Assembly: GCA_029762575.1 (NCBI GenBank)
Contig: JARVGL010000035.1
Location: forward strand, 1 to 13,363
DNA from: Thermoplasmatota archaeon
GTDB taxonomy: Archaea; Thermoplasmatota; E2; DHVEG-1
DNA: 13,363 nucleotides
Reading direction: 5' to 3'
The position numbers were made by a program, and so were the translations under genes. Positions 9,149-11,345 of this stretch are shown here, in pieces. Below the pieces are notes generated by a model that was not told the origin of the DNA, ran no database searches, and saw nothing but the letters and a program-made list of their open reading frames with translations. The first letter of the stretch is position 1. Every line of letters starts with the position of its first letter.

Positions 9149-9223
9149 TGCTCCCGTCGGGATTCGAACCCGAGTCCCCAGCTCGAAAGGCTGGAATGAT
9201 TGGCCGGACTACACTACGGGAGC
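9149..9223 (-). tRNA. tRNA-Glu (anticodon UUC), archaeal type, no encoded CCA.
   Basis: Minus-strand reading: GCTCCCG TA GTGT AGTCCGGCCAA TCAT T CCAGC CTTTCGA GCTGG GGAC TCGGG TTCGAAT CCCGA CGGGAGC A. It forms a full cloverleaf with a 7-bp acceptor stem, a perfect anticodon stem, anticodon TTC and T-loop TTCGAAT. The D-arm GTGTAGTCCGGCCAATCAT is the typical archaeal tRNA-Glu form. Confidence 0.9.
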
Positions 9224-9244: not shown

Positions 9245-9316
9245 CAGCCCTGCCCAGATTCGAACTGGGGTCGCTGGCTCCAAAGGCCGGCGTGTTAACC
9301 GCTACACTACAGGGCT
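9245..9316 (-). tRNA. tRNA-Gln (anticodon UUG), copy A: A1-U72, discriminator G73, perfectly paired D-stem GUGU/ACAC.
   Basis: Minus-strand reading: AGCCCTG TA GTGT AGCGGTTA ACAC G CCGGC CTTTGGA GCCAG CGAC CCCAG TTCGAAT CTGGG CAGGGCT G. The anticodon loop CTTTGGA gives UUG. The anticodon stem has one C28xA42 mismatch. No CCA is encoded. Confidence 0.85.
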
Positions 9317-9402
9317 ATCATCCACTTCTATATAAATGGTGTTGATACACCCGAAACAAGGATATCCTATTTATAATTTACAGATTTCAATCTTTAATAG
9401 AA

Positions 9403-9475
9403 TAGCCCCGTCTAGATTCGAACTAGAGTCACTGGCTCCAAAGGCCGGTATGATTGACCGCTACACCACGGGGCT
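9403..9475 (-). tRNA. tRNA-Gln (anticodon UUG), copy B: A1-U72, discriminator A73, archaeal Glu/Gln-type D-arm.
   Basis: Minus-strand reading: AGCCCCG TG GTGT AGCGGTCAA TCAT A CCGGC CTTTGGA GCCAG TGAC TCTAG TTCGAAT CTAGA CGGGGCT A. Its 17-nt anticodon arm is identical to copy A, including the C28xA42 mismatch. No CCA is encoded. Confidence 0.85.
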
Positions 9476-9498: not shown

Positions 9499-9509
9499 AT
9501 ATTAAAAAT
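9499..9509 (-). promoter_or_regulatory. TATA-box-like element (minus-strand ATTTTTAATAT) centred about 29 nt upstream of the mature 5' end of tRNA-Gln copy B.
   Basis: Read directly. The spacing fits an archaeal TATA box at about -26/-27 with a 2-3 nt leader. It lies in the 50-nt gap between the GlnRS stop and the tRNA. Confidence 0.35.
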
Positions 9510-9525: not shown

Positions 9526-11211
9526 TCAGTTCTTTCCCTGATCTTGGACTTTTGCCCAGGTGTCTTTGAGATTGACCGTTCGGTTGATCACTAGATCATC
9601 CTTGTTTGTCTCTGGGTCGATGCAGAAATAACCGAGTCGTTCGAACTGGAATCGTTCAAATGGTTTTAACTGTTTTAGCGTTGGTTCCACCTTGCATGAT
9701 TGTAAGATCTCTAATGAAGCAGGGTTGAGGAATTCTTTGAAGTCAGTATCTTTTTGTCCTGTTGGTTCTTTGACCGTGAACAATCTATCATATAATCTTA
9801 TCTCTGCATCTACTGCATTGGATGCTGAGACCCAGTGAATGGTTGATTTCACCTTTCGGCCGTCTGGTGCATATCCTCCTTTTGAGGCTGGGTCGATGGT
9901 TCCATGTAGTTCAACGATCTCATCATTTTCTTCAATTACATCAGTACATGTCAAGAGATATGCATATCGTAATCGAACCTCTCTTCCTAAAGTTAATCTG
10001 AAGAATTTTTTTGGTGGGTCTTTCATAAAATCTGTTTTCTCTATATAGAGTTCTTTTGTGAAATGGATGTTCCGAGTTCCTTCTTCAGGTCTTTCAGGGT
10101 TTATCATTGCCTCTAGTTCTTCTGTTGTCTCTTCTTGGTAATTATCGATGATGACCTTTAGAGGATGTAACACACCCATATATCGTGGGCAGGTTTGGTT
10201 GAGGTGTTCTCGAACGCAGTGTTCAAGGAATTCAAAGTCAACGGTGCTGTTGACCTTTGCTACTCCGATACGGCTGCAGAAGGCTCGTATGGATTCAGGT
10301 GAATAGCCTCTTCGTCTCATCCCACTAATAGTTGGTAATCGAGGGTCGTCCCATCCGTTGACATGGTGTAACTGGACAAGGTTTAGAAGCATGCGTTTGC
10401 TCATGATGGTATAGCTAAGATTTAATCGAGCGAACTCTATCTGTTGAGGATGATATATCTGTAGTTTATCTAAGAACCAGTCGTAGAGTGGTCTATGATT
10501 CTCGAATTCAAGGGTGCAGATGGAATGGGTTATGTTTTCTATGGAATCTTCCAGGCCATGGGCCCAGTCATACATTGGGTATATACACCATGTATCCTTT
10601 GTTCGATGATGGGTTGCATGAAGTACCCTATACATGACTGGGTCTCGCATGTTCAGATTTGGATGGTTCATATCTATCTTTGCACGAAGGACCTTTTCCC
10701 CATCTAAGAATGCTCCTTCCTTCATTTTTTGAAACAACGAGAGGTTCTCATCCACCGATCGATTACGGTATGGGCTGTTTGTTCCTGGTTGGGTTATTGT
10801 TCCCCTGGTCTCACTGATCTCTTTAGCGCTGAGATCATCAACATATGCATACCCTGCCTGTATCAGCTGAATGGCATACTCATACATCTGTTGAAAGTAA
10901 TCTGAGGCAAAGAACAGACGGTCCTCCCAGTCGAATCCAAGCCAACGTACATCTTCAATGATCGAATGAACATATTCATCTTCTTCTTTAGTTGGGTTTG
11001 TATCATCAAATCGAAGATTACAGAGACCACCGTACTCTTTTGCGATCCCAAAGTTTAAACAGATAGATTTTGCATGACCGATGTGTAGATACCCGTTTGG
11101 TTCAGGTGGGAATCGAGTATGGATACGACCCTGATAGGTATTGTTTTTTATGTCTTCATCGATTATCTCTCGTATGAAATCCTTTTTTTCAGTTAGATCA
11201 TCTATTGCCAT
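9526..11211 (-). CDS. glnS: Glutaminyl-tRNA synthetase (GlnRS), bacterial-type length and sequence.
   Basis: 561-aa ORF, colinear with E. coli GlnRS as I recall it. [10 protein letters not shown]...[44 protein letters not shown] matches FIRQIIDEDL...[44 protein letters not shown]. The HIGH motif is present. The MSK motif is IMSKR, against VMSKR in E. coli. Other matching blocks are [64 protein letters not shown] and [13 protein letters not shown]. There is no eukaryote-type N-terminal extension. Confidence 0.95.
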
Positions 11212-11345
11212 GGGTTCACTCTTTAAAATTCTATAATGAAACTGGTCTTCTTAGTTTTTTTATCCGGGAAGCATGATTGATAGTATGCTATATAACCTTT
11301 AACTTTTTTAACTATAGAGCGCATGTATATGCTGGTTGATTCTTT

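Follow-up and report, generated by a model that had tools for sequence, protein, structure and literature searches.

Two tRNA-Gln classes beside a bacterial-type glutaminyl-tRNA synthetase gene in an archaeon of the Thermoplasmatota

Here, we analyzed a 13,363-nucleotide stretch of DNA from a Thermoplasmatota archaeon (contig JARVGL010000035.1 of assembly GCA_029762575.1; hereafter, the window), in which two tRNA-Gln genes with the same UUG anticodon, copy A and copy B, lie next to glnS, a gene for a bacterial-type glutaminyl-tRNA synthetase (GlnRS). Our comparisons indicate that the two copies are one member each of two co-existing tRNA-Gln classes, distinguished by G or A at the discriminator position 73, and that the direct route (charging by GlnRS) and the indirect route (mischarging by glutamyl-tRNA synthetase, GluRS, followed by amidation by GatDE) probably operate in parallel on different isodecoders; we put the probability of this reading at roughly 0.65. 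It is carried by the intactness of both tRNAs, their class membership, the linkage of G73 genes to glnS, the co-distribution of the classes with GlnRS and GatE among relatives, and the archaeal origin of copy A. From this evidence, we infer which enzyme charges each tRNA and that a change in the D-loop acts as an anti-determinant.

Results

Copies A and B

The window is an entire contig (C90) of a 1.58-Mb archaeal metagenome-assembled genome (MAG; 161 contigs, 39.5% GC, 94% complete, 1.8% estimated contamination), referred to below as G000. On the minus strand, the gene order is glnS, copy B, copy A, and tRNA-Glu(UUC), with glnS located about 210 nt upstream of copy A:

9526..11211, minus strand: glnS, bacterial-type glutaminyl-tRNA synthetase, 561 aa (TIGR00440, Pfam, structure alignment)
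9403..9475, minus strand: copy B, tRNA-Gln(UUG) of the A73 class, native archaeal form, 73 nt (ARAGORN; Rfam, 54.0 bits)
9245..9316, minus strand: copy A, tRNA-Gln(UUG) of the G73 class, GlnRS-linked, 72 nt (ARAGORN; Rfam, 61.2 bits)
9149..9223, minus strand: tRNA-Glu(UUC), 75 nt, G1-C72, enlarged D-loop (Rfam, 59.4 bits)

A preliminary description of this DNA had placed two tRNA-Gln(UUG) genes at these positions and had called for covariance-model scores. ARAGORN and Rfam RF00005 returned the same two genes, both of which scored above the gathering threshold of 29 bits and matched over model positions 1–71. The copies share an identical 17-nt anticodon arm (CCGGCCUUUGGAGCCAG) and the pairs A1-U72 and G2-C71, and they differ at pair 6:67 (U-A in copy A, C-G in copy B), in the T-stem (CCCAG/CUGGG against UCUAG/CUAGA), at the discriminator (G73 against A73), and in the D-arm. 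In copy A, the D-stem GUGU/ACAC is paired over all 4 bp, including G10-C25, and closes the D-loop AGCGGUUA, which is one nucleotide shorter than that of copy B. The D-stem of copy B, GUGU/UCAU, contains U13·U22 and belongs to the D-arm GUGUAGCGGUCAAUCAU, in which the motif GGUCAAUCAU is present. The shared arm, the swap at 6:67, the T-stems, the discriminators, the D-stems, and the D-loop difference had all been described correctly. A C28·A42 mismatch had also been described as conserved; it is indeed flagged by cmscan in both copies alike, but no pair varies more than 28:42 in either class, relatives having U-A, G-C, C·A, U·U, or U·G there. We therefore rejected C28·A42 as a conserved mark of tRNA identity; the mismatch is local, found also in some sequences of genus g40.

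The reported absence of a CUG-anticodon tRNA-Gln holds for the window but not for the genome, which carries an A73-type tRNA-Gln(CUG) on contig C84 (23785-23857) with an acceptor stem and D-arm identical to those of copy B. This gene is the only CUG isoacceptor found in the genome, in whose long open reading frames CAG accounts for 35% of the Gln codons. The G73 expected of a substrate of an E. coli-type GlnRS is found in copy A and not in copy B. The tRNA features of the GatDE route (A1-U72, A73, the D-loop AGYGGUCAA, and U13·U22) are all present in copy B and in the CUG tRNA, and copy A departs from them by G73, the shorter D-loop, and U13-A22. Both copies have C3-G70, G37, and A38 where E. 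coli tRNA-Gln has G3-C70, A37, and U38, and their identity set thus appears to match the E. coli set in part only.

Class comparison and genome census

To compare the classes, we collected 55 G73 genes (42 unique sequences analyzed), the majority of which flank glnS in relatives, and 41 A73 genes (31 unique sequences analyzed, in their 73-nt forms). The G73 genes are 71–72 nt long, against 73 nt in 37/41 A73 genes, and have a D-loop of 7–8 nt (AGYGGUUA, AGYGGCA), against 9 nt (AGYGGUCAA). Positions 13 and 22 are paired in 42/42 unique G73 sequences (U-A, C-G, or U·G) and form U13·U22 in 30/31 A73 sequences, while pair 10:25 is G·U or G-C in the G73 class (G-C in copy A) and G·U in 29/31 A73 sequences. 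Pair 1:72 is A-U throughout the A73 class; of the 55 G73 genes, 42 have A-U and 13 have G·U at this pair, and G-C does not occur. In the D-arm, the difference amounts essentially to the deletion of one nucleotide, from GGUCAAUCAU to GGU(C/U)AACAU, and the motif CAAUCAU, which the A73 class has in common with 20/20 sampled tRNA-Glu genes, is lost in all 55 G73 genes. CUG and UUG isoacceptors share both changes, each retaining the anticodon stem of its A73 counterpart. Every stem, in both classes, shows compensatory pairs of several types, so that structural selection acts on both.

The family also has two forms of tRNA-Glu(UUC). The form in the window (9149-9223) measures 75 nt and has an enlarged D-loop (GUAGUCCGGCCAAUCAU), and the other measures 73 nt (GUAGYGGCCAAUCAU; loci L121, L126, L127, and L132–L135), its D-loop being the size of that of A73 tRNA-Gln.

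The distribution of the classes was then examined in 118 genomes of the order by a pattern search for tRNA-Gln 3′ halves, combined with searches for GlnRS and GatE; a reversed control pattern gave no hits across the 118 genomes. In the counts below, GatE-L denotes a divergent GatE paralog that is weighed in the Discussion:

GlnRS present, native GatE (n = 11): G73 only 1, A73 only 0, both 10, no pattern hit 0
GlnRS present, GatE-L only (n = 9): G73 only 9, A73 only 0, both 0, no pattern hit 0
GlnRS present, partial GatE hit (n = 3): G73 only 2, A73 only 0, both 1, no pattern hit 0
GlnRS present, no GatE hit (n = 43): G73 only 41, A73 only 0, both 1, no pattern hit 1
GlnRS absent, native GatE (n = 32): G73 only 0, A73 only 21, both 1, no pattern hit 10
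GlnRS absent, GatE-L only (n = 1): G73 only 0, A73 only 0, both 0, no pattern hit 1
GlnRS absent, partial GatE hit (n = 1): G73 only 0, A73 only 1, both 0, no pattern hit 0
GlnRS absent, no GatE hit (n = 18): G73 only 9, A73 only 1, both 0, no pattern hit 8

GlnRS was found in 66/118 genomes, all of them in family f1 (sister families, 0/8 and 0/2), and G73 genes occur in 65 of these 66. Only 12 of the GlnRS-positive genomes also hold A73 genes, namely ten with native GatE, the sister genome G042, which gave no GatE hit but in which GatD was found, and G057, which retains a GatE fragment only and whose A73 gene is damaged (loss of G10, T-stem mismatch). Among GlnRS-positive genomes, A73 survives almost only where native GatE or GatD survives. 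The preliminary description had asked whether G73 might simply be the norm in relatives that lack GlnRS. It is not: with native GatE, 21 of 32 such genomes have A73 only and none has G73 only, and both GlnRS-less sister families belong to this group, A73 being their only tRNA-Gln class. The single-contig genomes G053, G054, and G093 contain GlnRS and G73 genes only. Nine further genomes have G73 genes without detected GlnRS or GatE; these are drafts of 56–93% completeness, with G088 a single contig. In G053 (C1, 536851-537003), a 51-residue match to the GatD C-terminus (58 bits, 67-aa open frame) is apparently the relic of a lost gatD.

glnS loci of relatives and origin of copy A

In relatives, glnS is flanked by tRNA-Gln genes at 28/30 loci, usually with CUG upstream and UUG downstream, the latter often followed by tRNA-Glu; the remaining two loci have no tRNA inside their 1.5-kb flanks. 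All tRNA-Gln genes directly flanking glnS have G73, (A/G)1-U72, a length of 71–72 nt, and the shortened D-loop. Together with the A73 tRNAs of GlnRS-lacking, GatE-positive genomes, this linkage strongly supports the earlier proposal that copy A co-adapted to the acquired GlnRS. The proposal made alongside it, that GlnRS charges one copy and the GluRS/GatDE route the other, is plausible.

As in the window, an extra A73-type gene is present between glnS and the G73 UUG gene in four relatives' loci (G042, G086, G057, and G033). The copy in G042 is intact. In the other three, U10 replaces G10 (G033, locus L011 on C16, 1343-1415; G057, locus L021 on C23, 688-761; G086, locus L033 on C158, 3157-3231), with a 6-nt anticodon loop as a further defect in G033, a T-stem C·A mismatch in G057, and none in G086. 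These three genes look like successive decay stages of a gene whose intact form is copy B, and in most lineages the A73 copy next to glnS has been deleted. In GlnRS-less relatives, an A73 tRNA-Gln(UUG) gene is directly followed by tRNA-Glu(UUC) (L117, L119, L120, and L124), and the order in the window therefore looks like a native tRNA locus in which the tRNA-Gln gene was duplicated in tandem and a synthetase gene was inserted. The upstream CUG-G73 gene that is usual in relatives is missing from both G000 and G042, which, unlike the rest of the genus, keep the A73 CUG tRNA instead; a short-word BLAST search of 11212-11345, upstream of glnS, found no match to a remnant of that gene. In another genome with GlnRS and GatE (G101, locus L133 on C110, 446-521), an A73-type tRNA-Gln(UUG) that ARAGORN calls tRNA-Lys has a 9-nt anticodon loop (CUCUUUGGA) and could be either a decaying gene or an unusual decoder.

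Copy A shares 82% identity with copy B but only 51–53% with glnS-linked bacterial tRNA-Gln, which argues for its archaeal origin; by its sequence, it is a retuned native tRNA and not an import. The same identities led us to reject a co-transfer of a bacterial copy A with glnS. Linkage of glnS and tRNA-Gln exists among bacteria too, with a tRNA-Gln gene within 3 kb of glnS at 9/80 bacterial loci (L049, L050, L052, L072, L074, L088, L094, L097, and L106). At these nine loci, tRNA-Gln is of the UGGGGG...CCCCCA-G (U1-A72) or the UGCCCGA type.

The sister genome G042 independently holds the same three tRNA-Gln genes. Between the two genomes, copy B is identical at 73/73 and copy A at 71/72 positions while the immediate tRNA flanks have diverged, and tRNA-Glu and the A73 CUG tRNAs show compensatory changes at 7:66 and 28:42, respectively. 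GlnRS is 79% and GatD 76% identical, and these similar values point to vertical inheritance of GatD and not to a binning error. Taken together, the comparison argues that copies A and B and GatD have been kept by selection in this lineage. We rejected a pseudogene status of copy B, whose sequence shows no defect, follows the canonical A73 form, and is unchanged in G042; with the compensatory changes across relatives, this supports the earlier impression that both copies are functional.

Synthetase and amidotransferase genes

The synthetase of the locus is a genuine bacterial-type GlnRS. It scores 719 bits against TIGR00440 (cut-off, 425.8), falls below the cut-off of the archaeal GluRS model TIGR00463 (354.7 bits against 401.75), contains the Pfam domain tRNA-synt_1c and two anticodon-binding domains, and aligns over its full length with the E. 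coli GlnRS structures (677 bits). It is 60–68% identical to GlnRS of bacteria, including Planctomycetota, Chloroflexota, and Acidobacteriota, and its closest named relatives (75–77% identity) carry the label 'Thermoplasmatales archaeon'. In a FastTree phylogeny of 31 archaeal and 80 bacterial GlnRS sequences, the archaeal copies form one clan with a support of 100, compatible with a single acquisition; the donor phylum was not resolved with these 80 bacterial sequences. Across the phylum, GlnRS was found above the cut-off in 74/401 sampled genomes from about a dozen families. It is concentrated in certain families, such as f1 (33/53), f7 (10/12), and f23 (14/24), and none was found in others, such as f10 (0/48), f13 (0/36), and f31 (0/58).

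We also considered an archaea-specific substitution in the acceptor-binding region of GlnRS. The equivalent of E. coli Asp235 is Asn in 31/31 archaeal sequences, but as Asn occurs in 23/80 bacterial sequences too, this candidate was rejected as not diagnostic. In the E. coli GlnRS complex, the 1:72 pair is opened (Leu136); the equivalent residue is Leu or Ile in 30/31 archaeal sequences. One alignment column alone, at query position 515, separates archaeal from bacterial GlnRS.

The genome encodes the enzymes of the indirect route as well, each above its model cut-off and free of internal stops: an archaeal GluRS on C150 (TIGR00463, 507.8 bits), a full-length GatE on C76 (TIGR00134, 655.5 bits), and a full-length GatD on C95 (TIGR02153, 498 bits).

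Discussion

Our results suggest a route by which a foreign synthetase could have been accommodated next to a native charging system. Copy B would be the ancestral archaeal tRNA-Gln(UUG), still at its native place beside tRNA-Glu, and is most likely glutamylated by the non-discriminating archaeal GluRS and then amidated by GatDE. Copy A would be a descendant of the native tRNA that was retuned for the bacterial-type GlnRS, with the change from A73 to G73 making it acceptable to the acquired enzyme. With the loss of one D-loop nucleotide, the fourth D-stem pair U13-A22 is closed, G10-C25 is formed, and CAAUCAU disappears; by altering the shape that GatDE reads, this loss may put copy A beyond GluRS and GatDE. 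The new pair could thus work beside the old route and later permit its loss, and the locus resembles a midway stage in which one pathway to Gln-tRNA is giving way to another. In this genome, G73-UUG would be served by GlnRS, and A73-UUG and A73-CUG by GluRS and GatDE; CAG-specific decoding would then fall to the A73-type CUG tRNA, unless the UUG tRNAs read CAG by wobble. A stronger version, in which the cytoplasm holds two mutually orthogonal Gln-tRNA systems set by N73 and D-loop size, the CAG-specific tRNA is charged indirectly only, and the same two changes were the minimal switch that broke the GlnRS barrier, is one we advance tentatively, at somewhat less than even odds.

Several observations weigh against a parallel operation of the two routes on different isodecoders. 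Both classes retain A1-U72, G2-C71, G10, and the anticodon, and GlnRS might therefore charge copy B, and GluRS copy A. The archaeal tRNAs also lack the E. coli elements G3-C70, A37, and U38. Moreover, 16 genomes of the family have a divergent GatDE paralog (517–566 bits against TIGR00134), whose identity to the native proteins is 35% for GatE-L and 46% for the accompanying GatD, and nine of the 16 are GlnRS-positive genomes with G73 tRNAs only. In G059, a third tRNA-Gln(CUG), with G73 and the D-loop AGUGGUCA, lies 30 nt behind GatE-L. The G73 tRNAs may therefore not escape every amidotransferase route. In addition, the census counts come from related MAGs and are not independent, and absences may stem from incomplete assembly. 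Two of the GatE-L loci are L153 (G059, C198, 238-2266) and L159 (G038, C55, 235-3691).

The GatE-L observations also lend themselves to an explanation without an orthogonal pair, in which the G73 tRNAs are dual substrates, copy A being charged by GlnRS but also receiving Glu from GluRS, with an amidotransferase then correcting the product. The acceptor stems agree with it, in that the G73 class has A1-U72 (42/55) or G1·U72 (13/55) and A1-U72 is the acceptor element of GatDE. Against it stand the 41 GlnRS-positive, G73-only genomes without any GatE hit, including the single-contig G053, G054, and G093, where G73 tRNAs must escape GluRS, as Glu would otherwise be misincorporated. No GatE-L was found in G000, and the D-arm motif held in common with tRNA-Glu is gone from every G73 gene; we regard dual charging as improbable. 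Somewhat better placed, although still unlikely, is a transitional redundancy without partition, in which GlnRS charges A73 and G73 tRNAs adequately and GatDE, together with copy B and the A73 CUG tRNA, only awaits the loss seen in most relatives. Such a state would fit the disappearance of A73 genes and native GatE from most GlnRS-positive genomes, the decay of glnS-adjacent A73 copies in three other genera (G057, G086, and G033), and the gatD relic as the only remnant in G053. It sits less easily with a copy B that is canonical, intact, and 100% conserved in G042 despite a GlnRS divergence of 21%, with the A73 type of the sole CUG isoacceptor found in a genome where CAG is a common Gln codon at 35%, and with full-length open frames for GatD and GatE; G73 is, besides, a major determinant for bacterial GlnRS (PMC2777447).

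An artifact, either a pseudogene among the two copies or GatDE and A73 CUG contigs that came into the bin from another organism, is conceivable for a MAG of 161 contigs with some estimated contamination (1.8%), whose genes for GatD, GatE, and the CUG tRNA are on contigs other than the window. Copies A and B and glnS, however, share one contig, both tRNAs score 54–61 bits with intact stems, the CUG tRNA has exactly the acceptor stem and D-arm of copy B, and the same set of three tRNA-Gln genes, with a GatD of 76% identity, recurs independently in G042, so that we consider an artifact very improbable.

These findings can be set against what is known of tRNA-Gln identity. In E. coli, G73 is a major GlnRS identity element, and the acceptor end, pair 10-25, U35, and G36 contribute as well, pair 10-25 being a binding site of GlnRS (PMC2777447, PMC9976931). 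GatDE reads A1-U72 and the D-loop, the latter by its shape, and does not accept tRNA-Glu because its D-loop is enlarged (PMC2943598, PMC9499178); in bacteria the architecture of the D-stem decides GluRS specificity (PMC9976931). Archaea have been stated to be without GlnRS (PMC3439900), also in reviews as late as 2022 (PMC9499178), and a barrier has been proposed, after Tumbula et al. 2000, in which the archaeal tRNA-Gln with A73 and A1-U72 mismatches bacterial and eukaryotic enzymes (PMC9499178). A GlnRS next to cox genes in Heimdallarchaeia has been mentioned in passing (bioRxiv 10.1101/2024.07.04.601786). In the literature searched, we found no description of archaeal GlnRS-linked G73 tRNAs or, in archaea, of a GatDE route beside GlnRS and a second tRNA-Gln class.

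The direct side of the locus resembles the E. coli GlnRS/tRNA-Gln system (PDB 1GTS/1QTQ family, TIGR00440) in its full-length bacterial-type enzyme and in the G73, weak 1:72 pair, G2-C71, G10-C25, U35, and G36 of copy A. It differs in its archaeal host and in an archaeal tRNA body, with the acceptor AGCCCYG, C3-G70, G37, and A38 in place of UGGGG...CCCCA. The indirect side resembles the transamidosome of non-discriminating GluRS and GatDE in Methanothermobacter (M. thermautotrophicus; Oshikane 2006; Rampias 2010, PMC2943598), as copy B and the CUG tRNA have A1-U72, A73, and a D-loop smaller than that of the 75-nt tRNA-Glu, and GluRS, GatD, and GatE are all encoded; here, however, it stands beside GlnRS and a second tRNA-Gln class with a D-loop shorter by 1–2 nt. 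A comparable pair of same-anticodon isodecoders with G73 or A73, each with its own proposed enzyme, is known from the two PylRS/tRNA-Pyl pairs of HMET1 (PMC9499178), but in that case the enzymes are paralogous and orthogonality was measured, whereas our case sets a direct ligase against mischarging plus amidation and is known from sequence alone. In the GluRS1/GluRS2 pairs of H. pylori and Acidithiobacillus (PMC2777447, PMC9976931), the Glx branches are likewise tRNA-specific, with acceptor stem or D-stem deciding the enzyme; there, however, it is the enzymes that were duplicated while the tRNAs remained unchanged, whereas here the tRNA was duplicated and diverged around an enzyme acquired horizontally. 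Deinococcus, Thermus, and Bdellovibrio also combine GlnRS with a tRNA-dependent amidotransferase in one genome (PMC4206432). Their GatCAB serves Asn-tRNA and they have no second tRNA-Gln class, in contrast to the Gln-specific GatDE with its own tRNA-Gln genes described here.

The lineage thus shows the proposed GlnRS barrier crossed, and the window holds what appear to be the native and the retuned tRNA side by side. Our contribution lies in this pairing of adjacent A73 and G73 genes, in the retention of GatDE, in the co-distribution documented across the order, and in the D-loop deletion as a second class-defining change. The locus offers a natural example of a new synthetase-tRNA pair installed beside an old one with the code unchanged, and N73 and D-loop length, as candidate orthogonality elements, are of interest for the engineering of orthogonal pairs. 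If two orthogonal systems do exist here, two nucleotide changes would be a minimal switch past the barrier that keeps GlnRS out of archaea.

Flanking elements and minor observations

Two further elements lie in the spacers around copy B:

9499..9508, minus strand: candidate TATA-like box TTTTTAATAT, centered about 28 nt upstream of copy B (read from the letters)
9328..9383, minus strand: block of 56 nt, conserved within the spacer that separates copy B from copy A, with two TATA-like motifs, AAATTATAAATA and TTTATATA (G000/G042 comparison)

The TATA-like box upstream of copy B is a candidate promoter of its own for this gene, and TTTTTAATATCA is unchanged there in G042 despite the diverged spacer around it. 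The 56-nt block is nearly identical in G000 and G042, whereas identity drops to about 45% over the ~20 nt that directly follow copy B; the block may serve copy A as promoter or leader, or it may be an element of another kind.

Finally, a conserved open frame of ~170 aa that weakly resembles the asparaginase-like portion of GatD was observed in G000 (C13, 405-842), G038 (C23, 10489-10926), and G042 (C48, 6671-7096), with one in-frame TGA in 2/3 of these genomes.

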